Shown: positions 31,468 through 51,389 of the stretch, one piece after another
Position numbering within the stretch: position 1 is the first letter of the stretch
Layout of the letters: each line of letters begins with the position of its first letter
From: Minisyncoccota bacterium
Lineage (GTDB): Bacteria > Patescibacteriota > Minisyncoccia > Phycocordibacterales > UBA9973
Length of the DNA: 64,000 nt
Reading direction: 5' to 3'
NCBI GenBank assembly: GCA_036517535.1
Contig: DATDVS010000028.1
Location: 295 to 64,294 of the forward strand
Notes under the pieces: model-generated
What the model was told of the DNA's origin: nothing
The model's database searches: none
The model's input: only the letters and a program-made list of their open reading frames with translations
Made by a program: the position numbers and the translations under genes

Positions 31468-32070
31468 ATGTCTGACGAGGAAGCTAAAAAAGAAGTCCGA
31501 CCAGAGTCGGACCCCGACACGGAGGTCGGGGACGACGTTGTCGAGTTCGAATTCAATGAAGACGGCGAGGAGGACCTAAAAAAGACCTTAAAGAAGCTAC
31601 GGGCTGACCTAAAGGCTGCAAAAGCGGAAAAGGAGGAATACCTGACCGGCTGGCAGAAGGAGCGAGCGGATTTCGCCAATTATAAAAAAGAGGAAGAAAA
31701 TCGAAAGGCAATGTTTTCCGAGGCCGTGCGGGAGCGGATCTTGACCCGCTTTTTAACCGTGCTTGATAGTTTCAACTTGGCTTTTGCGAACAGGGAAGCC
31801 TGGGAGAAGGTGGATCCGAACTGGCGCAAGGGCGTGGAATACATCTATTCGCAGATGAACGATATTTTCAAGGAATATGGTGTTATGCCAGTGGGCGAAG
31901 TAGGGGAGAGTTTTGATCCGAACATTCATCAATCCATAGACATGGTGGCCACAAACAAGAGGGAGCAAGATCACAAAATTGCCGTTGTGGTGCAGAGGGG
32001 CTACAAGCTGGGCGGGCGCATCATCCGCCCGGCACGAGTGAATGTTTGGGAGTATAAGACCTTTCCCTAA
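31468..32070 (+). CDS. grpE: nucleotide exchange factor GrpE
   Basis: 200 aa. Long helix followed by a GrpE C-terminal beta domain (FDPNIHQSI...GYKLGGRIIRPARV). Confidence 0.9.
   Translation: MSDEEAKKEVRPESDPDTEVGDDVVEFEFNEDGEEDLKKTLKKLRADLKAAKAEKEEYLTGWQKERADFANYKKEEENRKAMFSEAVRERILTRFLTVLDSFNLAFANREAWEKVDPNWRKGVEYIYSQMNDIFKEYGVMPVGEVGESFDPNIHQSIDMVATNKREQDHKIAVVVQRGYKLGGRIIRPARVNVWEYKTFP
31495..31531. repeat. in-frame double-hairpin element, family B, in the grpE 5' region
   Basis: GTCCGAC-CAGA-GTCGGAC then (C)CCCGAC-ACGGAG-GTCGGGG. Encodes VRPESDPDTEVG. Near-identical to the rpoA copy. Confidence 0.75.
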
Positions 32071-32119
32071 CCCTCTCCTTGCCAAGGAGAGGGGAAAAGC
32101 AAAGGGGTGAGGTGAATTT
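32058..32119 (+). repeat. hairpin-plus-RBS repeat, copy A
   Basis: GACCTTTCCCTAA-CCCTCTCCTT-GCC-AAGGAGAGGG-GAAAAGCAAAGGGGTGAGGTGAATTT, followed by the ATG at 32120. Confidence 0.8.
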
Positions 32120-33778
32120 ATGAATTCTATCACTAAAATCTGTGCTGATTGCAGACAAGAATTCATAATAGATGAGGGGGATTTAAAGTTATACGAAAAA
32201 ATCGGACTCAAGCTTCCGACTAAATGTTTTGACTGCCGAATGAAGCAGTATTTTATATTTTCTATTTTTGGAAAGTTCCGCAAAGGGGTGTCTGACTTAT
32301 CAGGAGAGAGTTTGATTACTGTGCTGCCAAACAAGCCCAGATTCCCGATTTATCATTCTCATGAGTGGTGGGGTGATAGCTGGGATTCCATGTCCTACGG
32401 CCAAGATTATGATCCTGGGCGCTCATTTTTTGACCAGCTGAAAGAACTTCAAGAGAAAGTGCCTCGCCCGCACCAGATAGGACAAAATAATTTAAATTGT
32501 GATTGGTGTGATGATGCCTGGAACTGTAAAAATTGCTACCTTTCTCGCTCAATGGATAAATGTGAGAATTTGAGCTATGCCTACCGGGCAATTGATAGCA
32601 AGGACTCATTTGACATATTTTATAGCTTTAACCTCCAGAATTCTTATGACTGCTTGTTTTGTCACGACTCTTTCAATCTAAATTTTTCAGAAAATTCTCG
32701 GGATTGTATAGATTCATATTTCCTCTTTGACTGCCGTAACTGTCAGAATTGCTTTATGAGCTGGAATTTAAGGAATAAACATTATTGCATAAGGAATAAA
32801 CAATACACAAAAGAAGAATATGAAAAAGAATTAAATAAAATCAAACTTGACTCGTACGAGAATATAAAAAAATTAAGAACTGAATTTGAAGAAATATTGA
32901 GAAAAGAGGGAGTGCATAGGGAGAATTTCAACATCCGGTCGACTGGTTCCGTGGGGAACTATATGACTGATTGCGATAAATGCGTAAATGTTTTCTCATG
33001 GGAGGAATCACAAAATTGTCGCAACTGTATGCGCGGACTACGCTCGAAAGATTGCATTGATATGGGATTTTCCTGGAACCTGGAACTCTCCGGCAACAAC
33101 GGTGTGGTGGATGGCGGCTATCAGATCAAGCATTCGGGCGGGTCTTCTACTGGCAGATTCTCTGAATATGTGGATTTGTGTAAAGAAGTCGAGTATTGCT
33201 TTGGCTGTATCGGCCTTCGCAAAAAGAAATATTGTATTTTAAATAAAGAATACACGAAAGAAGAATATGAGAAACTAAAAGTACAAATCATAGCTGATAT
33301 GGAGAAGCGAGGAGAGTATGGCGAGTATCTCCCGTATTCGATGGGCACAGGGGATTATAATTTATCAAATGGGATAGTTTATTTCCCCAATATGACCAGA
33401 GAGGAAGTTTTAAGAAATGGTGGATACTGGTCTGACGAGGATTTGTCGCAGACAGACGGCGTTCCGTCTTCAGAATTACCTGATAGTATTTTAGATACCA
33501 CCCCCGAAGTTTCTTCCAAGGCACTTATTTGTCCGGAAAGTCATTATAGATTCAACATTGCTCAGACAGAATACGAATTTCATAAAAGGAAAAATTTTGC
33601 TTTACCACGGATTCACTTCGATAAAAGAATTATGGATAGAATGCGCAAAATGTCCATTATGAAAAACTACCCCTACCAATGTTTTTACTGTAAAGCTGAT
33701 ATAATGGCTTATTATCCGCCGGAATGGGGATACCAGAAGATTGCCTGCGAGGAATGTTATAAGCAGAACATAGCATGA
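32120..33778 (+). CDS. Cys-rich multi-zinc-ribbon protein, family member 1 (most divergent)
   Basis: 552 aa, paralog of members 2-6. Keeps the N-terminal CxxC...CxxC and both YC(I)xNKxYTKEEYEK caps. Several C-terminal module cysteines are replaced. Confidence 0.8.
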   Translation: MNSITKICADCRQEFIIDEGDLKLYEKIGLKLPTKCFDCRMKQYFIFSIFGKFRKGVSDLSGESLITVLPNKPRFPIYHSHEWWGDSWDSMSYGQDYDPGRSFFDQLKELQEKVPRPHQIGQNNLNCDWCDDAWNCKNCYLSRSMDKCENLSYAYRAIDSKDSFDIFYSFNLQNSYDCLFCHDSFNLNFSENSRDCIDSYFLFDCRNCQNCFMSWNLRNKHYCIRNKQYTKEEYEKELNKIKLDSYENIKKLRTEFEEILRKEGVHRENFNIRSTGSVGNYMTDCDKCVNVFSWEESQNCRNCMRGLRSKDCIDMGFSWNLELSGNNGVVDGGYQIKHSGGSSTGRFSEYVDLCKEVEYCFGCIGLRKKKYCILNKEYTKEEYEKLKVQIIADMEKRGEYGEYLPYSMGTGDYNLSNGIVYFPNMTREEVLRNGGYWSDEDLSQTDGVPSSELPDSILDTTPEVSSKALICPESHYRFNIAQTEYEFHKRKNFALPRIHFDKRIMDRMRKMSIMKNYPYQCFYCKADIMAYYPPEWGYQKIACEECYKQNIA

Positions 33779-33838
33779 CCTCTCCCTAGCCCTCTCCTTG
33801 GCAAGGAGAGGGGAAAAGCAAGGGGTGAGGTGAATTTT
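33777..33838 (+). repeat. hairpin-plus-RBS repeat, copy B
   Basis: GACCTCTCCCTAG-CCCTCTCCTT-GGC-AAGGAGAGGG-GAAAAGCAAGGGGTGAGGTGAATTTT, followed by the ATG at 33839. Confidence 0.8.
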
Positions 33839-35536
33839 ATGAATCCACAAACCAAAAATTGTCCGAATTGTAAAAAGGACTTTACTATAGAAAGTGAAGA
33901 TTTTAATTTCTATGAGAAAGTAAAAGTCCCTCCGCCGACTTGGTGCCCGCTGTGCCGCCAGCAAAGGCGCTATGCCTGGCGCAACGAGCGCACGCTGTAC
34001 CGCAGAAATTGCGATCTATGCGGCAAATCGACGGTGACCATTTACTCTCCGAATAAACCACACAAGATGTATTGCCAATCCTGCTGGTGGGGTGACGGCT
34101 GGGATCCGGCTTCTTTCGGAGTTGATTTTGACTTTTCCCGCCCATTTTTTGACCAATTTCATGAACTCCAGCTCCGGGTGCCGCGCATGGCCCTTTTGAG
34201 TAAAAACAGCGTAAATTCTGAATACACCAATCACTCCGGAGACGACAAAAATGTTTATCTTTCCTTCGCGGCCTGGTCGGCGGAAGATGTCCTATACAGC
34301 ACCTGGGTTATGAAGTCTCGGGATTGCATGGATTGCAGTTTCATATACGACAAGGGCGAACGCTTGTATGAAGTAATCGACTCCCGCACTTCTTACGAAT
34401 GCCAATACAGTATTTTCCTGAAGGACTGCTCTTCTTGTTATTACTGCTATGATTGCCACGGCTGCAATGAATGCTTTATGTCCTACAATTTACGCAATAA
34501 AAGTTATGTCTGGCGAGGTCAGCAACTAAGCCGGGAAGAATATATGAAAAAGAAGAAAGAGCTTGAGATGACTTCTTTTACAGAACGCCAAGGGCTTTTA
34601 CAAGAGTTCCAAGATACGATAGAGCAAAGTGCCATTCATCGATATGTGGTCTCCGAGCGCAATGTAAACTCTGTCGGCTCTCTTATTTTTGATTGCAAAA
34701 ATGTCAAACAATCCTTTGAGGTGAACGGTGCCGAGGATTGTAAATATATTTACGGGGGCCTGGATATGAAAGATTGCATGGATATATACCATGTCGGCTG
34801 GCATACTACCGAGCTTTGCTATGAACTGCATGGCTGTACACGGGTAGCCAATTGTAAATTCTGCCATCTTTGTTATGACAACAACAGTGTGTCCTACTCT
34901 GACAGTTGCCAGAACAGCCAGAATCTTTTCGGTTGCGTGAGCATTAAAAAAGGCGAATATATGATTTTCAATAAAAAATACAGCAAGGAAGATTACCTGG
35001 CGCTCAAGGAGAAAATTATCGAGCATATGAAGAAAACCGGGGAATACGGGGAATTCTTCCCGCCTGCCATTGCGCCGGTATACTACAACGAAACGCAGGG
35101 TATTCTGTATGATCCATTGACTAAAGAGGAAGTTCTGTCCAAAGGCTGGCATTGGGAGGATAATGTGCCGGGGACAAAAGGCAAAGAAACGATCAGCAAT
35201 AAAGACATCCCGGATAAGATTGAAGATGTGCCCGATACATTCTTGAAAGAAGTTTTTGCCTGCGATGCTTGCTCGAAGAATTACAACATCACCCAAAACG
35301 AGCTTCTGTTTTACCAAAAAGAAAAAATTCCTTTGCCGCGCAAATGCCCGAACTGCAGATACAAAAGGCGTTTTGATCTGCGCCCGCTCCGCAAGCTCTG
35401 GCACAGGGGGTGTATGTGTGACAAATCCGGCCATGACCACGCGGGAATCTGTAAAAATGAATTTGAGACTTCCTACGCTCCGGAGAGGAAAGAGAAAGTC
35501 TACTGCGAGTCCTGCTATAACAAAGAAGTGTATTAA
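33839..35536 (+). CDS. Cys-rich multi-zinc-ribbon protein, family member 2
   Basis: 565 aa from the ATG that follows the shared GGTGAGGTGA RBS; the ORF track begins 9 nt earlier at a GTG. Full complement of N- and C-terminal ribbons. Confidence 0.85.
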   Translation: MNPQTKNCPNCKKDFTIESEDFNFYEKVKVPPPTWCPLCRQQRRYAWRNERTLYRRNCDLCGKSTVTIYSPNKPHKMYCQSCWWGDGWDPASFGVDFDFSRPFFDQFHELQLRVPRMALLSKNSVNSEYTNHSGDDKNVYLSFAAWSAEDVLYSTWVMKSRDCMDCSFIYDKGERLYEVIDSRTSYECQYSIFLKDCSSCYYCYDCHGCNECFMSYNLRNKSYVWRGQQLSREEYMKKKKELEMTSFTERQGLLQEFQDTIEQSAIHRYVVSERNVNSVGSLIFDCKNVKQSFEVNGAEDCKYIYGGLDMKDCMDIYHVGWHTTELCYELHGCTRVANCKFCHLCYDNNSVSYSDSCQNSQNLFGCVSIKKGEYMIFNKKYSKEDYLALKEKIIEHMKKTGEYGEFFPPAIAPVYYNETQGILYDPLTKEEVLSKGWHWEDNVPGTKGKETISNKDIPDKIEDVPDTFLKEVFACDACSKNYNITQNELLFYQKEKIPLPRKCPNCRYKRRFDLRPLRKLWHRGCMCDKSGHDHAGICKNEFETSYAPERKEKVYCESCYNKEVY

Positions 35537-35538
35537 TA

Positions 35539-35599
35539 AGTTATAAAGTAGAAAGTTCATAAAGTTATAAAGTAAATAAAATGAACTCTGAAACTAAAA
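35539..35599 (+). repeat. 61-bp perfect direct repeat, copy 1 (intergenic motif block plus first 6 codons of member 3)
   Basis: Identical to 37326-37386: AGTTATAAAGTAGAAAGTTCATAAAGTTATAAAGTAAATAAAATGAACTCTGAAACTAAAA. Confidence 0.9.
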
Positions 35600-37323
35600 C
35601 ACATTCGAATATCTCAGTGTCTACGACTTGCCAGAATTGTAAAAAAGATTTCACCATCGAGCCAGATGATTTCTCTTTTTACGAGAAAATAAAGGTCCCG
35701 CCACCGACCTTCTGTCCGGAATGCCGAAGGCAGAGACGGCTTGTTTGGCGGAACGAGCGAACGCTCTATAAAAGGAAGTGCGATTTATGCCAGAAAAACG
35801 TCATTGCGATGTACCATGAATCTGTACCATTTCCGGTGTATTGCCGGGAATGCTGGTATGGCGACGGCTGGGATCCAAAATCATACGCCCGGGAGTACAA
35901 CATGAATAAATCGTTTTTCGAACAATATCACGAATTATCTAATGTTGTCCCTAAACTCGCCCTTTGGCAGAGAAACTCCATAAACTCCGATTACTCGAAC
36001 TATGTTGGTGAGTCCAAAAATGTTTATCTCTCGGCTTCGGTGGTAAAAAATTCGGAAAACATTTTTTATTCAAAATCCATAGATGGATGCAGAGATATTG
36101 TAGATTGCTTTAATATTATCAATGGTTCAGAAAGTTTGTATGAAAATGTTGAAGCGCAAGGGAATTATGATTCGCAATATCTCCTGCTTTGCCGAAGTTG
36201 CCTAGATTCTTATTATTCGGTTGATTGTATAAATTGCAGCAATTGTTTTCTATCTCATAATTTACGCAATAAGAAATTTTGTATCCGCAATAAACAATAC
36301 ACCAAAGAAGATTATTTTAAAGAACTGGAAAAATTTAATTTAAAGAGTCGGACTTCGCGTCAAATTTTACTAAAAGAATTTGAAAAAATAAAAAAGCAGG
36401 CCATTTATCGTTTCGGTAACATAACCAAATGCGTGAATGTTACCGGAAATAATTTGTTAAATGTAAAGAATTCAAAAGATTGTTTTGAAATATACGATAC
36501 TGAAAATTCTAAGTATGGCTACAGAGCCTTTTCACTGAAGGATTGTATGGATTTTGATTACGGGGGTTGGTCCGAGCTTCTTTATGAATACACGACAGGC
36601 GCGCTCAATCACTACAATGTTCATTTTACTTATTCTGCTATGGAGTCGGTCAGAAATGCCGACTATACGGAGTGGTGCAGAAATTGTAGCAATATTTTCG
36701 GTTGCATTTCGCTTAACAATGCCAAGTATATGATTTTAAACAAAGTTTATCCGAAAGAAGAATACATGAAATTAAGAGAACAAATTATCAAACAAATGAG
36801 CGCCACTCTTTTTAAGGATAAAAAAGGGAGGGTTTATAAGTATGGTGAATTTTTCCCGATTGAGCTCTCTCCCTGGGCATACAATGAAACCTTGGCGCAG
36901 GAATTTCACCCCACAACGAAACAGAAGGCGGAAGAAAACGGTTATTCATGGCGAGAGCCAAGTAAAAAAAATTTTGAAATCACAACCCCAGCGGATAAAA
37001 TCCCAGACGACATAGATGATGTAGCTGAAGAAATTATGAGCAAAGTGCTGGGCTGCGCTCACTCGGGAAATTGCAATCATCAATGCACTTCCGCTTTCCG
37101 TATCACGGATTATGAATTGAAATTCTACAAGAAACATGATATTCCCTTGCCGGATAAATGCCCAAATTGCAGATACTATGAAAGAGTGGCAGTTATGCCT
37201 GGATTAAAGTTGTACAAAAGGGTTTGCATGAAATGCAAAGTAGTAGAATTTGAAACTGCGTATGCTCCAGACCGGCCAGAAAAGATTTACTGTGAATCTT
37301 GTTATAATAAAGAAATATACTGA
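35581..37323 (+). CDS. Cys-rich multi-zinc-ribbon protein, family member 3
   Basis: 580 aa paralog with intact second N-terminal ribbon (CDLCQK...VYCRECWYGDGWDP). Confidence 0.85.
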   Translation: MNSETKTHSNISVSTTCQNCKKDFTIEPDDFSFYEKIKVPPPTFCPECRRQRRLVWRNERTLYKRKCDLCQKNVIAMYHESVPFPVYCRECWYGDGWDPKSYAREYNMNKSFFEQYHELSNVVPKLALWQRNSINSDYSNYVGESKNVYLSASVVKNSENIFYSKSIDGCRDIVDCFNIINGSESLYENVEAQGNYDSQYLLLCRSCLDSYYSVDCINCSNCFLSHNLRNKKFCIRNKQYTKEDYFKELEKFNLKSRTSRQILLKEFEKIKKQAIYRFGNITKCVNVTGNNLLNVKNSKDCFEIYDTENSKYGYRAFSLKDCMDFDYGGWSELLYEYTTGALNHYNVHFTYSAMESVRNADYTEWCRNCSNIFGCISLNNAKYMILNKVYPKEEYMKLREQIIKQMSATLFKDKKGRVYKYGEFFPIELSPWAYNETLAQEFHPTTKQKAEENGYSWREPSKKNFEITTPADKIPDDIDDVAEEIMSKVLGCAHSGNCNHQCTSAFRITDYELKFYKKHDIPLPDKCPNCRYYERVAVMPGLKLYKRVCMKCKVVEFETAYAPDRPEKIYCESCYNKEIY

Positions 37324-37325
37324 TT

Positions 37326-37386
37326 AGTTATAAAGTAGAAAGTTCATAAAGTTATAAAGTAAATAAAATGAACTCTGAAACTAAAA
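37326..37386 (+). repeat. 61-bp perfect direct repeat, copy 2
   Basis: Identical to 35539-35599. Confidence 0.9.
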
Positions 37387-39059
37387 AATGTGAAAGCTGC
37401 AGTAAAGATTTCGTCATCGAACCAGACGATTTTGGGTTCTATGAGCAGATGAAGGTTCCGCCGCCAGTATGGTGTCCAGACTGTCGGAGACTGCGCCGCA
37501 TGGCTTGGTACGGTTATAGAATTTTATACAAGCGCAAGTGCGATTTTACCGGAGAAAATATAATCACATTTTATCATCCGGATTTGCCTTATAAAGTTTA
37601 CAAGCAGGACGTCTGGTGGAGTGATAAATGGGACCCAAAAAGCTATGGGAGGGAGTATGATTTTTCTCGGCCATTTTTCGAGCAATATAAAGAATTAATG
37701 GATGAAGTGCCCAAAGCATCACTCCACACGGAATATACCACTATGATCAATAGTGAATATTGCAATGCGGCCAGCTTTCAGAAAAACGGGTATCTTTGCT
37801 TTAAACATATTAAAGGCGAAGACGCTGCATATACCAATGTTGTTTTGAATATAACAAATTGTTTAGACGTGGCGTACTCGGTTGATCTAGATCTTTGTTA
37901 TGAAACGGTTGATGTAGGACATTGTTTCCAATCTTTTTTCGTGCAAGATTGTCATACCTCTCAAAATCTTTATTTTTGCCGAGATTTGGTGAATTGTAGT
38001 AATTGTATAGGTTGTACTTCTTTGCGTAATAAAAGTTATTGTATTTTTAATGAGCAGTTCACTAAAGAAGAATATGAAAAGAAAATGAAGGAATTCGATT
38101 TTGGGTCCATGGCAAATTTACAGAAATTCAAAACAAAAGCATACGAGTTTTCTTTAAAATTTCCGCGGCGAGCGTTAAGGGGCGTAAATAATGTAAATAC
38201 TTCCGGTGAATATGTATATAATTCAAAAAATACGCGTGATGTATACTATGTTTCCGATTCCGAGAATGTGCGGTATGCCCAATTGTTTATTAAAGGCGGG
38301 GCTCATAATTGCCATGATTTTACCGCCTTTGGAACGAGCTCAGAGTGGGTGTATGAAGCAACATGGACTGGATACAATACTTCAAATGTGAAATTTAGCG
38401 TCTGGAATTATCGCAACCACGACACCGAATATACTTTTGGCTGCCACGGTTCTGAATACTTATTTGGCTGCGTCGGATTAAACAAGGGTTCCTATTGTAT
38501 TTTCAATAAGCAATACACCAAGGAGGAATATTTCCCTATGGTAGAAAAAATAAAAAAACAAATGGCTGAAATGCCGTTCGTAGACAGGAGGGGACTGAAG
38601 CACGGCTACGGCAGTCAAATCCCCATTGACTTATGCCCTTGGGCTTATAATGAAACTACCGCTTATGAATTTTTCCCGATAACTAAGGCAGAAGCCCTCT
38701 CCAAAGGCTTTACTTGGCGCGATGCAGACGAAAAAGAATATCTGCCTGCTAGTATGCTAGTACCAGATCATATCAAAGACGTGACGGACGAGGTACTGAA
38801 AGCCGTTTTGAAATGCGAGGCTTGCGGCAAAAATTATCAGATTATCCAAAAAGAACTACAATTCTTACGCCGGTCTAATCTGCCTATCCCGCGACATTGC
38901 CCGCTCTGCCGCGACCGTGCCCGCATCAAGCAAATGAATCCGATGGAGATGTATGACCGCAATTGTGATAAATGCAAAGCCAAAATTCAAACTTCTTACG
39001 CCCCGGACCGCCCGGAGATTGTGTATTGCGAAGATTGCTATAAACAGGAAGTGTACTAG
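37368..39059 (+). CDS. Cys-rich multi-zinc-ribbon protein, family member 4
   Basis: 563 aa paralog. Ends ...RPEIVYCEDCYKQEVY. Confidence 0.85.
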   Translation: MNSETKKCESCSKDFVIEPDDFGFYEQMKVPPPVWCPDCRRLRRMAWYGYRILYKRKCDFTGENIITFYHPDLPYKVYKQDVWWSDKWDPKSYGREYDFSRPFFEQYKELMDEVPKASLHTEYTTMINSEYCNAASFQKNGYLCFKHIKGEDAAYTNVVLNITNCLDVAYSVDLDLCYETVDVGHCFQSFFVQDCHTSQNLYFCRDLVNCSNCIGCTSLRNKSYCIFNEQFTKEEYEKKMKEFDFGSMANLQKFKTKAYEFSLKFPRRALRGVNNVNTSGEYVYNSKNTRDVYYVSDSENVRYAQLFIKGGAHNCHDFTAFGTSSEWVYEATWTGYNTSNVKFSVWNYRNHDTEYTFGCHGSEYLFGCVGLNKGSYCIFNKQYTKEEYFPMVEKIKKQMAEMPFVDRRGLKHGYGSQIPIDLCPWAYNETTAYEFFPITKAEALSKGFTWRDADEKEYLPASMLVPDHIKDVTDEVLKAVLKCEACGKNYQIIQKELQFLRRSNLPIPRHCPLCRDRARIKQMNPMEMYDRNCDKCKAKIQTSYAPDRPEIVYCEDCYKQEVY

Positions 39060-39103: not shown

Positions 39104-39628
39104 CTAGACCTTCATCGCTTTCAGAAACGAAAATTTTGTCTCTTCGTCGAGTTTGTCGGTAACGATGATCATGAGCTCGGTGGCGAGGCCGAGGTCTTTT
39201 TTGATATTAATGAAAAGGTTCTCATAAGGGAGAGGGGAGATCCAGACGGTATTTTTTATACAGACAAAATTTGCTTTCTTCAGGAGGTAGCGCAGGCTCT
39301 CACGCTCGGCTTTGCGCTCTTCCGGCAGATCCAAAATAATTATTCGCCACTGGCCGTCCCAAGAAGTATTTACGAGAGTGGTGTCGTTATCTAACTGCAA
39401 ACTATGCACTTTTTTCCTACCTTCTTTCGTCAGTCGAGCATACTGATTTTGTGTCGTGGAAATTTGTTCAATGAGCCCTGCTTCCCGCAGGCCTTTTAGA
39501 GAGCGAGTTACTGCGTATTTGTCATTCAATACAGAGGCAACGCCTCCGTATAGCTCCGGCAGGGAAATAGCTTTTTTTTGGTCTAGAATCTTTAATATTT
39601 TTCTAGAATAGTCCTTTTTGCTTGACAT
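39104..39628 (-). CDS. winged-helix regulator with a PaaX-C/Cas2-like C-terminal domain
   Basis: 174 aa. N-terminal wHTH-like region. C-terminal WDGQWRIIILDLPEERKAERESLRYLLKKANFVCIKNTVWISP matches the PaaX C-terminal / Cas2-fold pattern. Confidence 0.55.
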   Translation of the reverse strand: MSSKKDYSRKILKILDQKKAISLPELYGGVASVLNDKYAVTRSLKGLREAGLIEQISTTQNQYARLTKEGRKKVHSLQLDNDTTLVNTSWDGQWRIIILDLPEERKAERESLRYLLKKANFVCIKNTVWISPLPYENLFINIKKDLGLATELMIIVTDKLDEETKFSFLKAMKV

Positions 39629-39665
39629 ACTTATAGCCTATCATATATACTGATTTATACAAGTT

Positions 39666-39681
39666 TTTCGCGACCGCGAAA
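39666..39681. promoter_or_regulatory. inverted repeat in the regulator/dnaK divergent intergenic region
   Basis: TTTCGCG-AC-CGCGAAA, followed by ATGCAT. Confidence 0.35.
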
Positions 39682-39699
39682 TGCATGTAAAACAGGTCT

Positions 39700-39734
39700 A
39701 ACTTTATAAACTTTATAACTTTTAACTTTATAAC
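39700..39734. repeat. intergenic motif block, reverse orientation, directly upstream of dnaK
   Basis: AACTTTATAAACTTTATAACTTTTAACTTTATAAC, then the ATG. Confidence 0.7.
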
Positions 39735-42276: not shown

Positions 42277-42374
42277 TTGGAAAACTAGGGTGGAGCTTCG
42301 GCTCCCTAAAAGGGTAATTGCATCCCTCGCTTCGGCGAACAGATGCAGAACAAGAACCTAACCCCGTTTTCCAA
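42277..42374 (+). ncRNA. candidate structured RNA (three-way junction), class unknown
   Basis: Closing helix TTGGAAAAC/GTTTTCCAA plus GGGT/ACCC. Hairpin GGAGC-UUCG-GCUCC. Hairpin TGCATC..TCGC-UUCG-GCGA..GATGCA. Confidence 0.4.
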
Positions 42375-42381
42375 AACACAC

Positions 42382-42424
42382 CGGACTGGTTCAGCGCTTG
42401 CGCTGGGCCGGTCCGTTTCTACTT
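42382..42424 (+). terminator. GC-rich hairpin plus T-rich tail
   Basis: CGGACTGG-tt-CAGCG-CTTG-CGCTG-gg-CCGGTCCG, followed by TTTCTACTTTT. Confidence 0.6.
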
Positions 42425-42448
42425 TTACTTCAAAAATTTATAAATAAA

Positions 42449-42457
42449 TGATACAAT
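42449..42457 (+). promoter_or_regulatory. extended -10 element (TGaTACAAT)
   Basis: Lies 9 nt upstream of the ATG at 42467. Confidence 0.45.
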
Positions 42458-44492: not shown

Positions 44493-46253
44493 ATGCAGTC
44501 CGAAACTAAAATCTGCCAAAATTGCAAGAAAGATTTTACGATAGACTCGGAGGATTTTAATTTCTATGAAAAGATCAAGGTCCCTCCACCGACTTTTTGT
44601 AATCTTTGCCGAGCGCAGAGGCGGCTATCATTCAGAAATGAAAGAAAACTTTTCAAAATAAAGGACGCCTTAACAGGCAAGGAAATTTTTTCTACCTATC
44701 CAGCTGAAAGCGGCAGGAAGATAATTACTCGCGATGCGTGGCTCAGTGACAATTGGGATCCCATGGATTATGAACAGGATTATGATTTCTCTCGCTCGTT
44801 TTGGGAGCAACAGCAAGAGCTCGAGAAGAAAGTTTACATGTACAACTTTAATGTCATAAGGATGGTAAATAGTCCTTATGCATTTAATGCCACAGCGCTT
44901 AAAAACAGCTACCTAGTCGTTAATTCAAGCTATTCCGAGGATTGTATGTACGGCAATGCGATTGATCGCTCTAAGGACTGCGTAGACAATTCGCATATCA
45001 ATGAATCTGAACGCTGCTATGAATGCTTCTGGTTGCGTAAATGCTACCAATGCTATTTCACTATAATGTCAGCTGATTGTCGCAATATGTGGTTTTCTAG
45101 GGATTGCCTGGGTTGCAATGACTGCTTTGGTTGTGTCAATTTGCGTAAAAAATCATATTGTATTTTCAATAAGCAATACACTAAAGGTGAGTATGAAAAG
45201 GAAATTTATAGAATGAAGCTCCATACAAATTCTGGGTTAAAAGAAGCCAGGGAAAAAGCCAGAGAATTTTGGGCGACGCAAATCACCCGGCACCAACAAG
45301 GCGTAAGAAATTTAAATTCAACTGGGTCTTATGTTACTGACTGCAAAAATGTGAATGATAGTTATTTAATTAGGGAAAGTGAGAACATGCGCTACTGTCA
45401 GTATTTGCAGGTGCCCGGGAACAAAGACAATTATGATGTCAGTAATTGGGGTGAAGATACGGAGCTGTGTTATGAATGCATAGAATGCGGTCAGAGTTCG
45501 TATAACAATAAATTTTCTAGGAACTGCTGGCCAGCGTGCCGGAATCTAGAATATTGCGTGCATCTTTTTAGCTCCTCTGACTGCTTTGGTTGTGTTGGGC
45601 TCAAAAAAGCCCAATATTGCATTTTTAACAAGCAATACACAAAAGAAGAATATAAGAAGTTGGTAGAAAAAATTAAAAAACACATGGATGAGATGCCCCA
45701 TATAGATTCCCAAGGATTAGTCTATAAATACGGAGAGCTTTTCCCCATGGAATTTTCACCATTCGGATACAATAATACTTTAGCCGCACAGCATTTTCTT
45801 TTGTCCAAAGCAGAAGCGGAAGCAAAAAATTACCAGTGGATAGAAACCGAGAGAGGGGAGTATAAAACCACCATAAAGGCCGGAGAGTTGCCCGAAGAAA
45901 TAGAAAATACCGCCAATAATATTTTGAAAGAAGTGATAGAGTGCGAATCCTGCAATAACCCTTACCGGATCTTAGAAAACGAGTTAATTTTCTTAAAACG
46001 GGAAAAGATCCCTGTTCCCCGTATCTGCAGTGAATGCAGGCATGAACGCAGAATAAATGATCGACTGAAACTATTTCTATATGAACGTACATGTAAATGT
46101 GCCGGGGTTTCCGACGAAACAGGGAAATATAAAAATACGGTAGCTCATCATCACAAAGATGCTCCATGTGGAGAGGTTTTTAAAACCGGCTACTCACCCG
46201 ACTCACCGCAGATAGTCTATTGCGAAAAGTGTTATCAGGCGGAAGTATACTAG
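44493..46253 (+). CDS. Cys-rich multi-zinc-ribbon protein, family member 5
   Basis: 586 aa paralog. The ATG lies 1 nt after the ATPase stop. Confidence 0.85.
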   Translation: MQSETKICQNCKKDFTIDSEDFNFYEKIKVPPPTFCNLCRAQRRLSFRNERKLFKIKDALTGKEIFSTYPAESGRKIITRDAWLSDNWDPMDYEQDYDFSRSFWEQQQELEKKVYMYNFNVIRMVNSPYAFNATALKNSYLVVNSSYSEDCMYGNAIDRSKDCVDNSHINESERCYECFWLRKCYQCYFTIMSADCRNMWFSRDCLGCNDCFGCVNLRKKSYCIFNKQYTKGEYEKEIYRMKLHTNSGLKEAREKAREFWATQITRHQQGVRNLNSTGSYVTDCKNVNDSYLIRESENMRYCQYLQVPGNKDNYDVSNWGEDTELCYECIECGQSSYNNKFSRNCWPACRNLEYCVHLFSSSDCFGCVGLKKAQYCIFNKQYTKEEYKKLVEKIKKHMDEMPHIDSQGLVYKYGELFPMEFSPFGYNNTLAAQHFLLSKAEAEAKNYQWIETERGEYKTTIKAGELPEEIENTANNILKEVIECESCNNPYRILENELIFLKREKIPVPRICSECRHERRINDRLKLFLYERTCKCAGVSDETGKYKNTVAHHHKDAPCGEVFKTGYSPDSPQIVYCEKCYQAEVY

Positions 46254-46287: not shown

Positions 46288-48033
46288 ATGAATCAAGAAA
46301 CTAAAAACTGCCAGAATTGCAAAAAGGATTTCACGATCGAGCCGGAGGATTTTAATTTCTATGAAAAGATCAAAGTTCCACCGCCGACGTTTTGTCCGGA
46401 ATGTCGGGCGATTCGGCGATTGATTTGGCGTAATGAAAGATCGTTATATCATAATATCTGTGCTTTTTCGGGTAAGAAAATAATCTCAATGTTCTCTCCG
46501 GAAACAAATCTAGTAGTATACGACCGTGATATCTGGTGGAGCGATAAATGGGACCCCACATCCTATGGCCAGGAGTATGATTTTTCCAAACCATTTTTCA
46601 CGCAATTTCAAGAATTGATGTCGAAAGTCCCTCTTGCTAATTTAGGTAATACCAACAGCCCAAAAAGTGAATATGGCAACCATAATGCAGACTGCAAAAA
46701 TTGTTATTTGGTATATGCATCGTTTAGCAACGAAAACTGCTCTTATTCGAATGGCTTGGTCAATACAAAAGATTCATTAGACTTATACAAAGTTACTAAA
46801 TCCGAGCAATGCTACAACAGCACTCTGTGTGCAAGCTGCTACAACACTCATTTTTCCTATGACAGCGATGAATGCATCGATTCGATGTTTTTGACGTCGT
46901 GTCTAGGATTGCATAATTGCCTAGGATGCATTAATTTACGCCATAAACGCTATTGTATTTTCAATGAGCAATATACCCAAGAAGAATACGAAAGAAGGGC
47001 GGCCAGCTATAATCTGGGTAGTTATGAAGGCCTAAAAAGATTTGAGGAAGAATATAAGAATTTCATAAAAGATCAGTTCCGGCGCTTTGCATTTATTTTT
47101 AAATCTATAAATGTCACAGGGGATAATATTATGTTCGCTAAAAATAGTAGAATGCTTTTCGACAGCTATGGAGATGTGGAAAACTGCAGTTATATTACCC
47201 ACGCAGTCAATATTAAAGACAGCCAGGATGCTTATGGTACCGGCGCTAAAATGGAATTGTTGTACGAAGGCGTGGATTGCGGGATTAATGCTTACAATAT
47301 GCATTTCTGCGTTTTAGCTCATAGTTGTGTCGATGTGGATTATACATATATGTGTTTTGGTTCAAGCAAGCTATTTGGCTGTATCGGCTTGCGCAATCAG
47401 GAATATTGTATTTTAAACAAGAAATATTCAAAAGAAGAGTATGAAAAATTACGAGCAAAGATCATCAAACACATGAATACTATGCCGTATGTAGACAAAC
47501 AGAGCAGAGTATATAAATACGGAGAATTCTTTCCGGCCGAACTCTCGCCCTTTGCATACAGTGAAACTATCGTGGAAGAGTATTATCCTCTCAATAAGAA
47601 AAAAGCTTTAGATTATGGGCTCAAAATAAAAGAAAAAGTGTCCAGAGACTATAAAATAGATTTAGCAACAGAAGAATTACCCGACCATATAAAAGATACC
47701 AATGAGAGCATAGCAGGAAAGGTAGTTGAATGCATGCATAAAGGTACTTGCAAGGAACAATGCACTGAGGCATTTAAGATTACTGCCGAAGAATTACAAT
47801 TTTATAAAAAAATAAATATAGCCCTACCTCGGCTATGCCCGAACTGCCGGCACTTCCAGAGGCTTGCGAAACGCAATCCCCTGAAGCTCTGGCACAGGGC
47901 GTGTATGTGTGAGAAGGAAGGCCATGACCATGACAAGGTTAAACCTTGTCCAAATGAATTTGAAACCAGCTATGCGCCGGAGAGGCCGGAGATAATTTAC
48001 TGTGAGAAATGCTATCAGAAGGAAGTTTACTGA
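46288..48033 (+). CDS. Cys-rich multi-zinc-ribbon protein, family member 6
   Basis: 581 aa paralog. Ends ...RPEIIYCEKCYQKEVY. Confidence 0.85.
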   Translation: MNQETKNCQNCKKDFTIEPEDFNFYEKIKVPPPTFCPECRAIRRLIWRNERSLYHNICAFSGKKIISMFSPETNLVVYDRDIWWSDKWDPTSYGQEYDFSKPFFTQFQELMSKVPLANLGNTNSPKSEYGNHNADCKNCYLVYASFSNENCSYSNGLVNTKDSLDLYKVTKSEQCYNSTLCASCYNTHFSYDSDECIDSMFLTSCLGLHNCLGCINLRHKRYCIFNEQYTQEEYERRAASYNLGSYEGLKRFEEEYKNFIKDQFRRFAFIFKSINVTGDNIMFAKNSRMLFDSYGDVENCSYITHAVNIKDSQDAYGTGAKMELLYEGVDCGINAYNMHFCVLAHSCVDVDYTYMCFGSSKLFGCIGLRNQEYCILNKKYSKEEYEKLRAKIIKHMNTMPYVDKQSRVYKYGEFFPAELSPFAYSETIVEEYYPLNKKKALDYGLKIKEKVSRDYKIDLATEELPDHIKDTNESIAGKVVECMHKGTCKEQCTEAFKITAEELQFYKKINIALPRLCPNCRHFQRLAKRNPLKLWHRACMCEKEGHDHDKVKPCPNEFETSYAPERPEIIYCEKCYQKEVY

Positions 48034-48090
48034 CCTCTCCCTAACCCTCTCCTTGGCAAGGAGAGGGGAAAGAAAGGGGTGAGGTGAATT
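48032..48090 (+). repeat. hairpin repeat, copy C (no downstream + strand gene)
   Basis: GACCTCTCCCTAA-CCCTCTCCTT-GGC-AAGGAGAGGG-GAAAGAAAGGGGTGAGGTGAATT. Lies between convergent member 6 and rsmE. Confidence 0.8.
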
Positions 48091-48742
48091 AAAGAGAATT
48101 TACGGCTAGATAAGTCCCCACAATGGCGGCGGTTTCACCGCGGAGAGTAAGGTCGCCGAGCGAGGCACCTACGTAAAGGCCGGTGCGAGCTTCGTCGATT
48201 TCTCGCTCGGTGAAACCGCCTTCGGGGCCGACAAAAATGCTTACTGACTTTGCAGTTTTCTTAGGAGAATAAATAATATGACCGGGGTGAAAAATAATTT
48301 TTTCTTCTGCGGCGGAGCCGAAGGCGAGGGCGGGAGAGAAGTTTAAAATAGGGGAGAGTACAGGCAGAAAGCTCCGGCCGGATTGCTCAGTGGCCTCTTT
48401 AATGATTTTATTCAAACGCGCTACGTTAAGCCCGGTTTTAATTGTTCTCTCTGTTATAACCGGTGTAATGCTGGTCACCCCGCATTCGACTGCTTTCTGT
48501 ACGGCTAGCTCGAAATTTTCTTTCTTTAGGATCGCAAGGTATAGATGCACTTTGCGATCTGCACCCACAGGCTCCAGAGTTTTGATGGCCTCAAAACCTC
48601 CATCAGTGATTTCATAGAGAGTATCGTGGCCGTTGCCGTCTCCAAAAATTACCTGTTCCCCAGGGATTAATTTGAGTACTTTATGGATCTGTTTAGTTAT
48701 TTCCGGGTCCTCCGGGCGCCCGATAAAACGATGAATTTTCAT
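48089..48742 (-). CDS. rsmE: 16S rRNA (uracil1498-N3)-methyltransferase RsmE
   Basis: Start taken at Met 107 of ORF 48089-49060 (MKIHRFIG...). C-terminal FVGPEGGFTEREI and LGDLTLRGETAA are typical of RsmE. Confidence 0.8.
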   Translation of the reverse strand: MKIHRFIGRPEDPEITKQIHKVLKLIPGEQVIFGDGNGHDTLYEITDGGFEAIKTLEPVGADRKVHLYLAILKKENFELAVQKAVECGVTSITPVITERTIKTGLNVARLNKIIKEATEQSGRSFLPVLSPILNFSPALAFGSAAEEKIIFHPGHIIYSPKKTAKSVSIFVGPEGGFTEREIDEARTGLYVGASLGDLTLRGETAAIVGTYLAVNSL

Positions 48743-48750
48743 GGTATCTA

Positions 48751-48778: not shown

Positions 48779-50254
48779 ATGCCCAAGCCTAATCGAGTGC
48801 AGATAATCAAATACGGGCCGCCGCCGCCGGAACTGCCTGTCTTCGGTAAGGTAAAGCCGGAAGACGCGTCTTTCATTGGGCGTACCAACTATGTGGCCGC
48901 TCTTGAAGAGAAGAAATTTATTTTCGGCATCAAGCGCGTCGATCGTCGCCGGCACCTGTACATCATCGGCAAGTCGGGGGTAGGGAAGTCCAAGCTGCTC
49001 GAGCTCCTCATCCGGCAGGATATCCAGTATGGGCATGGGCTGTGCCTGATCGACCCGCACGGCGATGAATTCAAAAATATTCTGGATTTTGTACCCAAGG
49101 AGCGTATTGAGGATGTCTGTGTTATTGATCCGACCGATGTGGACTTTCCGGCCTCTTTTAATCCTCTGGCCAATGTGGACCCGGCATTTAAATTTATCTT
49201 GACCCAGGGGCTAATCGAAGTTTTCCAGAAACAGTTCGGAGCAAATTGGACGCCGCGCCTCGAGCACGTTTTCAGATTTACCTGTTTGGCGCTCCTGGAC
49301 TATCCGCATGCCACCATGCGCGGGATGATCTCGATGCTGACCGACCGAAATTACAGGCAGAAAGTGGTGGAGTATATTACCGACGACATGGTCAAACGCT
49401 TCTTCGCTATCGAATTCGCCGACTGGTCGGAGAAATTTGACACTGATGCCATCATCCCGCTGGTCAACAAGCTCGGCCAGTTTCTCTCCGATCCGCTTCT
49501 GCGCAATATCTTCGGCCAGAAAGAAAACAAAATAGATGTCAGTAAACTCATGAATGAGAAGAAGATAATTCTCATCAATATCTCCAAGGGGCGACTCGGT
49601 GAAGAAAACTCCTCATTTCTAGGATCCATCTTTCTGACTAAAATCAAACAGGCGGGGATGGAGCGCGCTGGCATGCCGGAGAGCGCCCGGACCGACTTTT
49701 ACCTATACGTGGACGAGTTCCAGAACGTGGTGACCCAAACATTTGAAAATATTTTATCGGAAGCGAGAAAGTATGCCCTTAACTTAACCATAGCTCATCA
49801 ATATGTGGGCCAGATCATCACTAAAGTACATCAGGCTGTGCTCGGTAACTGCGGATCGATTATTACCTTCCGTATCGGCGGCGAGGATGCGGTGAAAATG
49901 AAGCCGGAATTCGCTCCACTTTTCGATGTGAAAGATATGATCAACCTGGCGATGACGGAGTTTTATATCAAGATGACCATCGACGGGGAGTCCTACGATC
50001 CGTTTTCCGCCGAGACTCTGAGAGTTCTGCCGCCTACCCACCCTTCCTATCAAGAGGAAATAATCGCCGCTTCGCACCGGAAATATACGATACCGAAAGA
50101 TGCCGCGGCAAAACTTATCGCCGAAGAGGAGGCGACCATCATTCGCAGTGCGGAAGAAAAAGCCATAATAGAGGGTCGGGCAAAACGCCTATCTAAAGGG
50201 CGGGGCGAAGGCGAAGAGGCAAAATCTTCACAAGAAGCGGAACCTATGATATAG
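48779..50254 (+). CDS. TraD/TrwB/VirD4-like P-loop NTPase, second paralog, no TM segment and no zinc ribbon
   Basis: 491 aa. Walker [18 protein letters not shown], Walker [12 protein letters not shown], and AHQY. Collinear with 42467-44491 over the ATPase core. Confidence 0.75.
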
Positions 50255-50294
50255 TGCAGAAAAATTATCAATTTTCAATTTAAAATTTAAAAAA

Positions 50295-51389
50295 ATGTCA
50301 AAAGACTACTACAATATATTGGGCGTAGATAAAAAGGCCTCCAAAGACGAAATAAAAAAGGCGTTCTATAAAATGGCGCACAAGTATCACCCTGATAAAA
50401 AAGAAGGGGACGAGGCTAAGTTCAAGGAGGTGAACGAAGCTTATCAGGTGCTCTCAGATGACTCAAAGAGAAACCAGTATGATCAATTTGGCAGCGCCTA
50501 TGCCGGGGGCAACGGCTATTCGCAGCAGGGCGGATTCGAAGGCTTCGACTTCAGTAATATGGGAGGTTTTCAGAACGGCGCAGAATTCGACTTCGGAAAC
50601 CTTAATGATATTTTCAGCGACTTTTTCGGTGGAGGTATGGGGGGCAGAGCCCAGGCTCGCCGCGGGCGCGATATCTCGACCGAAATTCAGATTTCCTTCG
50701 CCGATGCCGTTTTCGGCGTAAGCAGAAAAATTTTAATTACTAAAACTTCAAACTGCCTCACTTGCAAAGGCAGTGGCGCCAAAGCGGGCACTAAAATGGA
50801 AACTTGCAAGAAATGCAACGGGCAGGGCAAGATCAGAGAGGCTAAGAGAACAATACTGGGGACAATTTCAAGCACAAAAATATGCGAGACCTGCCTAGGC
50901 GCAGGCGAAGTGCCAAAAGAAGTTTGCGAGACCTGTAAAGGCAAAGGCGTACTTCGCCGCGAGGAAGAAATATCCATTGCAGTGCCGGCCGGCATTCGTG
51001 ACGGCGAGATGATCCGCATGACTAGCATGGGCGAAGCTGCCGCCCGCGGCACTCCGGGCGATCTGTATATAAAAATAAACGTGACCTCGCATCCGGTCTT
51101 TAAGCGCGACGGCAACGACCTGGTGATGACGCTTAATCTCAAACTCTCCGACGCGCTCCTCGGCCTGAAGCACCCGATCGAAACCCTTGATGGAGAGATA
51201 GAGGTTACCATTCCGGAAGGCGTATCCGTAAATGAAATTCTTAGAGTCAAAGGCAAGGGCGTGCCCCTAGGAAGTCAGACCAAAGGCAAGCGGGGCGATC
51301 TATTGATCAAGCTCAACATTAAGCTCCCGCACAAACTCTCGCGCAAATCCCGCGAGCTCATTGAAAAGCTCAAAGAAGAGGGAATATAA
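50295..51389 (+). CDS. dnaJ: molecular chaperone DnaJ
   Basis: 364 aa. J domain (HPD), G/F region, and four CxxCxGxG repeats. Confidence 0.95.

Follow-up and report, generated by a model that had tools for sequence, protein, structure and literature searches.

In Firmicutes such as Bacillus subtilis, the heat-shock operon hrcA-grpE-dnaK-dnaJ(-prmA-rsmE) is under HrcA/CIRCE control. The locus described here lies in a 64,000-nt stretch of contig DATDVS010000028.1 from a Minisyncoccota bacterium, and "the window" refers to the whole of this stretch. As in that operon, grpE, dnaK and dnaJ occur in this order on a single strand, rsmE is close by, a putative dedicated repressor gene lies alongside, and a candidate inverted-repeat operator stands between a promoter and the first regulated gene. 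It differs in that the three genes are never contiguous in its clade, that no hrcA or CIRCE element was found in the window, and that a truncated PaaX-like regulator is divergent from dnaK and is paired with a different palindrome of ~40 bp at dnaK only. In addition, the locus contains two P-loop ATPases (ATP1 and ATP2) and up to nine further genes, among them six members (M1 to M6) of a Cys-rich protein family. The layout is real, conserved and typical of its lineage, and it represents a new variant of the Hsp70 locus in the core chromosome of Paceibacterota, which are Nomurabacteria-like members of the candidate phyla radiation (CPR).

The ATPases resemble type IV coupling proteins (T4CPs), for which a census of Patescibacteria is available in part (Quinonero-Coronel et al. 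2025, PMC12102498). It reports 5,713 VirD4-type homologues in 2,918 genomes, or about two per genome. Only 148 of these 5,713 lie near virB4, and exaptation is raised there as a possibility; the available part of the paper contains no mention of dnaK or zinc. In the literature searched for Cys-rich arrays, T4CP-like ATPases or PaaX-like regulators at dnaK in CPR bacteria, the locus is not described, and this census was the only relevant report.

An earlier reading of the same DNA (the original prediction) held that the Cys-rich genes and two coupling-protein-like ATPases split the chaperone genes apart, leaving gaps of 7.7 and 8.7 kb. The gene identities, coordinates (Table 1) and gaps all hold up and are supported by Pfam matches. 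The gap between grpE and dnaK measures 7,664 nt and the one between dnaK and dnaJ 8,652 nt, and Pfam and NCBIfam leave no ambiguity about the identity of the chaperones, rsmE and the ATPase cores. Every named gene is on the + strand except the regulator and rsmE, in agreement with the claim that grpE, dnaK, the six paralogs, both ATPases and dnaJ share one orientation. The predicted content of the two intervals is likewise present, with a divergent regulator in the first and two small open reading frames (ORFs), a strongly folding RNA candidate, ATP1, M5, M6, rsmE and ATP2 in the second. GrpE is 100% identical to the GrpE of a Candidatus Paceibacterota metagenome-assembled genome (MAG), and the same locus has been assembled from several samples. 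Its surroundings are core chromosome. The ribosomal-protein/rpoA operon is always 5' of grpE in relatives, where the order rplM-rpsI-grpE is kept, and arginase-family, metK, cysS, dnaB, recR and trpS/tyrS-type genes follow downstream.

Conservation of the arrangement was assessed in 173 related loci, in which genes were placed by tblastn with the window proteins. The set includes 79 loci of species-representative genomes anchored by an M profile, 80 metagenome loci anchored by an ATPase profile, and ten loci anchored by GrpE or the regulator, nine of them with DNA. All of them are contigs from MAGs or metagenomes that were selected for their similarity to M1, ATP2 or the regulator, and contigs rather than independent species are counted; because of this selection, the frequencies describe one clade. 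The clade is defined by an ATP2 that is at least 80% identical, with dereplication at 97% nucleotide identity. Its backbone is rplM-rpsI-grpE-...-regulator(-)-dnaK-ATP1-...-ATP2-dnaJ. In 34/35 loci the gene upstream of dnaK is the divergent regulator, and in 34/36 the first recognised gene downstream of dnaK is ATP1. The dnaJ gene directly follows ATP2 in 46 of the 48 ATP2-anchored loci and in 50 of the 53 dereplicated loci, with a median gap of 34.5 nt.

The M genes vary on this fixed backbone. Between ATP1 and ATP2, 0, 1, 2, 3 or 4 copies occur in 12, 16, 10, 3 and 2 dereplicated loci, respectively, and rsmE lies between the ATPases in 10/42. Between grpE and the regulator there are 0-5 copies, with none in five of the nine loci that were not selected through M. 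Close relatives (L084, L085, L104 and L145) have no M gene at one or both sites. M1-type orthologs (54-71% identity) nevertheless occur directly after grpE in both main branches, and other M types are also specific to their positions, with M3-type genes before the regulator, M5-type genes after ATP1 and M6-type genes before ATP2. In a rough DnaK neighbour-joining tree, which carries no support values, the M-free loci are scattered among M-rich ones. Because of this scatter and the position-specific orthologs, the simplest reading is that both sites were occupied long ago and that repeated loss and expansion followed. The M genes are accessory, in the form of old, ordered paralogs whose copy number shifts rapidly between relatives.

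These comparisons divide the proposal that one gene family had colonised a heat-shock locus twice. It stands for the M genes, which range from 0 to 5 copies at the first site and from 0 to 4 at the second and are missing from some relatives, although their position-specific orthologs show that they are not recent arrivals. It does not stand for the ATPases, which are fixed beside dnaK and dnaJ. As to whether grpE, dnaK and dnaJ are contiguous in relatives and whether family members always sit between them, the three genes are contiguous in no relative of the clade, and the M genes are not always there. A functional tie to the Hsp70 system, such as was proposed for the Cys-rich proteins, would, if it exists, more plausibly belong to the ATPases.

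ATP1 and ATP2 are a true paralog pair (44% identity, E = 4e-134) with the T4CP-type domains that had been predicted, matching the Pfam families TrwB_AAD_bind, T4SS-DNA_transf, DUF87 and TraG-D_C. They score 35.5 and 20.4 bits against T4SS-DNA_transf (cut-off 20.1) and 34 and 32.7 bits against DUF87 (cut-off 23.2). TrwB_AAD_bind reaches 42.5 bits on ATP1 over profile positions 12-311 of 387 (cut-off 20.5), and 16.5 bits, below the cut-off, on ATP2. Walker motifs are readable in both proteins (GKSGTGKS and GKSGVGKS, with LYVDEF), and Walker A begins at about residue 42 in ATP1 and residue 64 in ATP2. Neither has an N-terminal membrane anchor, the maximum 19-residue Kyte-Doolittle mean being 1.29 for ATP1 and 1.06 for ATP2. 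A CxxC-x17-CxxC zinc ribbon is present in ATP1 alone, at residues 448-483, where it matches PF23477/zf_Tbcl_2 with 47.2 bits (cut-off 27) and TIGR04272 with 47.7 bits (cut-off 36). The termini of the M proteins match the same PF23477/TIGR04272 module, but with scores under the cut-offs.

ATP2 shares 30% identity with the cytoplasmic half of a bona fide actinobacterial T4CP encoded in a PrgI/VirB4/relaxase cluster, and no relaxase, VirB4 or VirB6 gene was found in the window or in the loci of ten relatives with gene calls. The ATPase genes have a GC content at third codon positions (GC3) of 0.61-0.64, like dnaK and the ribosomal-protein genes. Median identity in relatives is 85.5% for ATP2 and 82.6% for dnaK, the former figure being inflated because the loci were selected on ATP2 similarity. 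ATP1 and ATP2 are derivatives of type IV coupling proteins that lack transmembrane segments and have become fixed, housekeeping-like members of the locus. PADLOC returns only generic mad8 (E = 2e-14) and HerA matches for them, of at most 52 bits.

Two further features of the ATPases were observed. Both match phrog_5156, a family of unknown function with 824 positions (E = 1e-62 and 1e-53), and because only its C-terminal half is matched, a longer viral relative, or one borne on an integrative and conjugative element, exists with an extra N-terminal ~380 residues. ATP1 orthologs have a long low-complexity tail followed by a conserved end motif, EVPEDVLRKxLE (window positions ~44440-44488), which could be a docking peptide.

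M1 to M6 form a single family, as predicted. They are true paralogs of ~570 aa that align from end to end with 31-45% identity and find one another by tblastn with E values from 1e-61 to 1e-156. Each contains 29-36 Cys, in contrast to none in DnaK and GrpE, together with 10-15 His, and at most about six C4 sites are predicted per protein. No further copy of M or of the ATPases was found elsewhere in the window. A large protein collection holds more than 7,393 homologs of M6, all unnamed and without a precomputed Pfam domain, from Paceibacterota, Nomurabacteria or other Patescibacteria, and a profile of the six paralogs recovers 2,335 cluster representatives at E <= 1e-30.

An AlphaFold 2 model of M6 has a mean predicted local distance difference test score (pLDDT) of 82.8 and a predicted TM-score of 0.84, with two central stretches that are weaker (60-70). 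In this model the protein would consist of a zinc module, two homologous repeats, a mid domain and a second zinc module. Profile comparison with hhalign relates the N-terminal double zinc-ribbon module (residues ~9-81) to the C-terminal one (~490-574) with 98.5% probability, and it relates the two ~110-residue repeats (130-241 and 278-392) to each other with 99.8% probability. Both repeats terminate in an invariant NKxY(T/S)KEEY helix. Identity among the paralogs is 49-56% in the terminal modules and helices and 21-30% in the repeat bodies. The zf_Tbcl_2 domain models score 21-23.6 bits on M1, M2 and M4, below their cut-offs of 24-27, and do not match M3, M5 or M6; the N- and C-terminal modules retain the CxxC...CxxC pattern. 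No M protein has a hydrophobic or transmembrane segment, and none has a Sec signal.

Further searches for M gave little. There is no match in PADLOC or among plasmids, one marginal match to PHROGs (M1, E = 4e-4), and one marginal match among 2.9 M viral contigs, from which the family is otherwise absent. A search of viral structures with the M6 model gives similarity at the level of zinc ribbons only (best E = 9e-3), and the best match of the M profile to PDB sequences, a beetle antifreeze beta-helix at E = 0.2, is not significant.

The divergent regulator matches PaaX_M with 66.2 bits (cut-off 24). The best fold match of its AlphaFold 2 model (pLDDT 79) in the PDB is E. coli PaaX (8a39, E = 1.7e-6, 177 aligned columns), followed by MarR-family proteins. 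Against the PaaX equivalog TIGR02277 it reaches 30.1 bits where the cut-off is 264.55, its 174 aa comparing with 279 profile positions. The regulator start codon is overlapped by the -35 hexamer of the dnaK promoter-like site, and TTGACAT is kept there in aligned relatives. An imperfect palindrome (consensus tTTtnACAAGTaTTTCGtGacCaCgAAAaAcTTGttAAAa) follows the -35 hexamer by 42-50 nt (mostly 47-48) in the regulator-dnaK spacers of about 35 related loci. A 34-nt weight matrix of this element finds a single site in the window, at 44 bits, and nothing else there reaches 12 bits. In 2.5 Mb of related loci the same matrix finds 37 sites, 34 of which lie between a called regulator and dnaK. Two others are at the same position on cut contigs, and the last, a weak one, is 63 nt upstream of a dnaJ with an M gene between it and ATP2. 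The short palindrome TTTCGCG-N2-CGCGAAA was also tried by itself and is not enriched; only the extended 34-nt matrix is specific.

From these positions we infer a dedicated repressor-operator pair for dnaK, with autoregulation, although the palindrome, if transcribed, may act at the RNA level. CIRCE (TTAGCACTC-N9-GAGTGCTAA) has 0 matches with up to 3 mismatches in the 64 kb, and upstream of grpE there is no hrcA, its place being taken by rpsI. The PaaX-like protein and its palindrome look like a candidate CPR substitute for HrcA/CIRCE. The other promoter-like sites in the region are consensus matches only. Those of grpE and ATP1 end just 7-10 nt before the ATG, and if they are used, the mRNAs would be leaderless or nearly so. 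Consensus promoters and gaps together suggest grpE-M1..M4, dnaK, ATP1-M5-M6 and ATP2-dnaJ as likely transcription units.

We consider it probable, by a narrow measure, that the locus is a conserved super-locus encoding an exapted ATPase motor with interchangeable multi-zinc M proteins as adaptors or cargo, co-expressed with Hsp70. The ATP1/ATP2 pair would be a hexameric coupling-protein motor that has been exapted, and the M proteins, with their constant double zinc-ribbon ends and variable repeat bodies, would be its exchangeable adaptors or cargo. Docking of M may occur via the CxxC-x17-CxxC module that it would share with ATP1. The position beside grpE, dnaK and dnaJ could provide co-expression with the Hsp70 system and probably hand-over to or from Hsp70, while dnaK would have separate control through an operator of its own, bound by the PaaX-like repressor.

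Several observations weigh against this interpretation. The bare backbone rpsI-grpE-regulator-dnaK-ATP1-ATP2-dnaJ exists without any M gene in L084 and L085, and unrelated genes occupy the same junctions in relatives, including ceramidase, a glucosamine-6-P isomerase-like gene, rsmE and strain-specific small ORFs. The GC3 of the M genes (0.40-0.43, or 0.53 for M2) is below that of all chaperone and ATPase genes (0.56-0.64; ribosomal-protein genes and rpoA, 0.52-0.67), and GC content is lower across the M arrays. No palindrome site is present in the window at the M arrays, grpE, ATP1 or dnaJ, and a strong bidirectional terminator-like hairpin separates dnaK from ATP1. Solved structures match the ATPases only at the P-loop (TrwB 1e9r and 1gl6, E = 6e-7), and a PDB fold search with the M6 model returns nothing below E = 1, its weak top matches being left-handed beta-helix proteins. 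The adaptor role of M is a guess from architecture, since the central repeats are modelled at a pLDDT of only 60-70. Locus L153 has an almost contiguous dnaK-x-dnaJ, with the ATPase-M array 5.7 kb further downstream, on the far side of secDF. Finally, among 66 M-anchored loci of at least 10 kb, a chaperone gene is present within 10 kb in 18 and absent in 48.

All 18 of the chaperone-bearing loci are from Paceibacterota or are Nomurabacteria-like. The 48 chaperone-free loci include Peregrini-, Peri-, Gracili-, Abawaca-, Lipton-, Harrison- and Staskawiczbacteria, with up to ten M genes in a row, and 17 of them, including those of Peregrini-, Peri-, Gracili- and Abawacabacteria, also encode an ATPase that is ~50-77% identical to ATP2. 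In a sister group whose ATP2 is 75-79% identical, the order is ATP2-(CutA1)-M...M-ATP1 and there are no chaperones. This order, the pairing of M with ATPases in chaperone-free loci and the arrangement in L153 identify the unit as an M cassette bracketed by ATPases. L153 was considered as a case of dnaK-dnaJ-ATPase adjacency in a second lineage; it was rejected and is not counted as tight linkage because secDF and three other genes intervene. The unit is a cassette of the form [ATPase]-(M)n-[ATPase], whose insertion between dnaK and dnaJ, together with a second M array after grpE, marks one clade. By comparison with related loci, the constant partner of M is therefore the ATPase, and the chaperone link is clade specific and runs through the ATPases.

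Three other gene types recur in these M/ATPase arrays, also where no chaperone gene is near, and none of them is in the window. They are a CutA1-like gene (17 loci, including L012, L017, L060, L078, L084, L095, L101, L104, L117, L123, L153-L156, L160 and L170), an MsbA-like ABC half-transporter (14 of ~170 loci, including L005, L006, L015, L086, L090, L092, L094, L135, L145, L154-156 and L172) and an ArsR/SmtB-like regulator of 90 aa (8 loci, including L028, L086, L094, L104, L105, L135 and L173). All score under the NCBIfam cut-offs and belong to generic families. Their recurrence hints that the module is larger and may have a metal, thiol or export theme. A broader proposal, which we consider unlikely, is that ATP1/ATP2 and M, with optional CutA1, ABC exporter and ArsR-type regulator, constitute an undescribed CPR-wide machine that has been wired into Hsp70 in Paceibacterota, where it could be, for example, a substrate-delivery or remodelling partner of DnaK and DnaJ.

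An account that strikes us as somewhat improbable is that neither M nor the ATPases work with Hsp70, and that permissive operon junctions (grpE/regulator, dnaK/ATP1 and ATP1/ATP2) in a stable leading-strand core region merely gather tandem-duplicating accessory genes by neutral hitch-hiking. Copy numbers that run from 0 to 5 with losses scattered over the tree, the unrelated genes in the same junctions, an M GC3 unlike that of the neighbours, M arrays without the dnaK operator and chaperone-free M arrays elsewhere are all expected on this account. It leaves unexplained why dnaJ follows ATP2 in 50/53 loci at a distance of ~35 nt and ATP1 follows dnaK in 34/36, why the ATPases are as conserved as DnaK, and why the same family is nearly always the one inserted, with its paralogs in a conserved order. 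A metal or thiol role is more doubtful. Here the M proteins would be zinc buffers, sensors or clients needing Hsp70 and DnaJ, and the locus would be a heat, metal and oxidative-stress island. Such a role would suit their high Cys and His content and predicted C4 sites, the zinc binding of CxxC-x17-CxxC domains in small Methanosarcina proteins (PMC12704099) and, weakly, the CutA1-like, ArsR/SmtB-like and ABC exporter genes inside M arrays, which however are sub-threshold, generic and missing from the window. The conserved Cys lie in ribbon or treble-clef modules that are typical of structural zinc, and the central Cys are poorly conserved. In addition, it is hard to see what a hexameric translocase-type ATPase would do in metal buffering, and a tie to Hsp70 is opposed by the missing operators and different codon usage of the M arrays and by the lack of a chaperone link outside one clade (48/66 M loci are chaperone-free, and 17 of these 48 have an ATPase).

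We regard it as very unlikely that the ATPases act with an ABC exporter or a distant type IV secretion system (T4SS) to export M as surface or effector proteins of an episymbiont, with the chaperones keeping M unfolded. The 30% identity of ATP2 to a genuine T4CP of a PrgI/VirB4/relaxase cluster is compatible with export, as are the MsbA/HlyB-like ABC exporters within arrays, the absence of a Sec signal, which T4SS or type I secretion substrates would share, and the weak similarity of M to Cys-rich beta-helix proteins. Constant ends, variable repeat bodies and variable arrays are also typical of surface or effector families. Against export, the ATPases have no membrane anchor, the loci examined contain no VirB4, VirB6 or relaxase gene, multi-zinc-ribbon proteins are typically intracellular, and the ABC gene occurs in only 14 of ~170 loci. 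The census, moreover, places only 148/5,713 T4CP homologues near virB4 and reports the T4CP as dispensable where the T4SS was essential (PMC12102498). Least credible of all is a mobile or defence island that has landed in the chaperone locus. The weak mad8 (E = 2e-14) and HerA matches and the phrog_5156 match (E = 1e-62) of the ATPases and the lower GC content of the M arrays would fit such an island, but no defined anti-phage system in PADLOC is matched and the regulator has no meaningful match there. No integrase, transposase or repeat borders accompany the locus, and its neighbours are housekeeping genes (tRNA synthetases, dnaB, recR and ribosomal-protein genes). M itself has no match among plasmids or in PADLOC, virtually none in 2.9 M viral contigs and at most one marginal match among PHROGs, and its orthologs are inherited in fixed positions. 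ATP2 is among the most conserved genes and is syntenic across the clade, unlike defence genes.

A large part of bacterial diversity belongs to the CPR, whose genomes measure ~1 Mb, yet 1-2% of this DNA is spent on the unnamed M family. Pairing of M with ATPases is seen across deep CPR classes, and the locus gives a concrete context to the question of "orphan T4CPs", with ATPases that stand between dnaK and dnaJ and bracket CPR-specific M arrays. Should the module work with Hsp70, it would represent a new type of chaperone partner; should it not, the locus would still be a clean example of an essential operon that tolerates repeated gain and loss of accessory genes. A CPR-wide machine, if real, would explain the purpose of the orphan T4CPs, of which the census counts roughly two in each Patescibacteria genome.

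The remaining features of the region are smaller (Table 1). The start of M2 is most likely ATG 33839 rather than GTG 33830 of the listed ORF. The start of rsmE is most likely 48742 (MKIHRF; 217 aa), so the gene does not overlap ATP2, from which it is divergent with 36 nt between the start codons. The dnaK-ATP1 gap of 0.8 kb holds the two small ORFs and hairpins. Its segment 42275-42466 folds with a minimum free energy of -65.2 kcal/mol (z = -5.9 versus shuffles), and Rfam gives only sub-threshold terminator-like matches in this gap and only a tRNA in the whole window. The structured RNA candidate has no blastn match in relatives, where small ORF 2 is likewise not seen. The small ORFs and the structured RNA are outside the conserved locus.

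Other short elements recur in the spacers. The GC-rich hairpin CCCTCTCCTTGNCAAGGAGAGGGG occurs at three sites, where 0 are expected, and nowhere else in the window. It is not followed by a T-run, and the tail AAAGCAAGGGGTGAGGTGAA after it supplies a strong Shine-Dalgarno-like sequence for M1 and M2. An 11-mer, AACTTTATAAC or its complement AGTTATAAAGT, has 16 copies where 1.35 are expected (27940-30510, 35540-35574, 37327-37361 and 39700-39734). Nearly all are in short spacers before the starts of ribosomal-protein genes, M3, M4 and dnaK, in either orientation. L001, the closest genome relative, has this 11-mer too, but of the first 79 loci only one more does, and the motif could be a lineage-specific translation or processing signal. 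The 44-nt spacers between M2 and M3 (35537-35580) and between M3 and M4 (37324-37367) differ by one base, although the flanking proteins are only ~40-47% identical, which suggests a conserved element or local gene conversion.

Additional observations concern the flanking genes. Directly 3' of dnaJ is a cyclase-family gene (51390-52058) with a GC3 of 0.25, as opposed to 0.40-0.67 in its neighbours. It stands where 35 related loci have a conserved membrane ORF of 196 aa and is probably a recent replacement. The metK gene (52982-53935) encodes a reduced form of only 317 aa in which all three S-AdoMet synthetase domains are present and shortened. Between alaS and the infA/ribosomal-protein genes, three successive ORFs (532, 412 and 425 aa; 22932-27015) have no or faint Pfam matches (Ppx-GppA or FtsA-like) and occupy the same position in relatives.

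Table 1. Coordinates of genes and candidate elements in the window
Feature	Position	Strand	Remarks
rpsI	30911-31318	+	Pfam Ribosomal_S9, E = 8.8e-38; end of ribosomal-protein/rpoA operon
grpE promoter-like site	31434-31461	+	TTGAAA-16-TAAAAT with TG, 10/12, 7 nt before ATG; consensus match only
grpE	31468-32070	+	Pfam GrpE, E = 4.5e-37
GC-rich hairpin CCCTCTCCTTGNCAAGGAGAGGGG	32071-32094, 33790-33813, 48045-48068		After grpE, M1 and M6
M1	32120-33778	+	552 aa, 30 Cys; most divergent Cys-rich paralog
M2	33839-35536	+	565 aa from ATG 33839; zf_Tbcl_2 at aa 54-86
M3	35581-37323	+	580 aa
M4	37368-39059	+	563 aa; C-terminal zf_Tbcl_2 / CxxC-x17-CxxC at aa 527-560
PaaX-like winged helix-turn-helix regulator	39104-39628	-	174 aa; Pfam PaaX_M, E = 2.7e-18; divergent from dnaK
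dnaK promoter-like site	39622-39651	+	TTGACA-18-TATACT, 11/12; best sigma-70-type match in 20-kb region
Candidate operator core	39657-39690		Imperfect palindrome of ~40 bp, consensus tTTtnACAAGTaTTTCGtGacCaCgAAAaAcTTGttAAAa; also given as ACAAGTaTTTCGtGacCaCgAAAaAcTTG
dnaK	39735-41642	+	Pfam HSP70, E = 2.5e-247
Small ORF 1	41729-41908	+	59 aa, one hydrophobic segment; only in contigs of the same organism (strain-specific)
Terminator-like hairpin	41929-41968		Bidirectional: A-run, stem, T-run
Small ORF 2	42071-42274	+	67 aa from ATG 42071; no family
Structured RNA candidate	42277-42415	+	Branched fold, then 15-bp terminator-like hairpin with T-run; upstream of ATP1
ATP1 promoter-like site	42429-42457	+	Consensus match only
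ATP1	42467-44491	+	Soluble VirD4/TrwB-like P-loop ATPase with zinc ribbon and low-complexity tail
M5	44493-46253	+	586 aa; ATG 1 nt past ATP1 stop codon
M6	46288-48033	+	581 aa
rsmE (16S rRNA methyltransferase)	48089-48742	-	Pfam Methyltrans_RNA, E = 6.8e-35
ATP2	48779-50254	+	Soluble VirD4/TrwB-like ATPase, no zinc ribbon
dnaJ	50295-51389	+	Pfam DnaJ, DnaJ_CXXCXGXG, DnaJ_C

Several described proteins can be compared with the components of this locus. The regulator shares a winged-helix N-terminal domain and a Cas2-like PaaX_M middle domain with the E. coli PaaX repressor (PDB 8a39). Because it has only 174 aa, in comparison with 305 aa for PaaX, the C-terminal domain is missing, and its context is dnaK rather than phenylacetate catabolism. 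The CxxC-x17-CxxC small proteins of Methanosarcina, which bind zinc as measured by inductively coupled plasma mass spectrometry (PMC12704099), have the same ribbon module as ATP1, which scores over the cut-off, and probably as the M ends, which score under it. In contrast to those small proteins, the module here is part of an ATPase and probably of M proteins of ~570 aa with four ribbon units and two large repeats.

Hexameric ATPases are known that act in partnership with Hsp70, as ClpB does with DnaK, or that use a zinc module to recognise substrates or adaptors, as in the zinc-binding domain of ClpX. By analogy, ATP1 and ATP2 may be ring ATPases that are encoded together with DnaK and DnaJ, and the zinc module could recognise adaptors or substrates. 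They are of the FtsK/HerA/T4CP lineage rather than AAA+, and the analogy suggests how they might work and not that they belong to the Clp group.

The closest relatives of the ATPases are the type IV coupling proteins VirD4, TrwB and TraD, with which they share a P-loop NTPase core of the FtsK/HerA/T4CP lineage; in the all-alpha-domain region the Pfam match is above the cut-off for ATP1 and below it for ATP2. Unlike these proteins, ATP1 and ATP2 have no N-terminal membrane anchor and no relaxase, VirB4 or channel genes nearby. They instead form a conserved chromosomal paralog pair between dnaK and dnaJ, one member of which carries a C-terminal zinc ribbon. The orphan VirD4-type homologues of the census are, as far as its available part describes them, most likely the same genes as ATP1 and ATP2, and we infer that its count of about two per genome corresponds to this pair. 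What the present locus adds to that part of the census is the position between dnaK and dnaJ, the paired arrangement around M arrays and the zinc ribbon.

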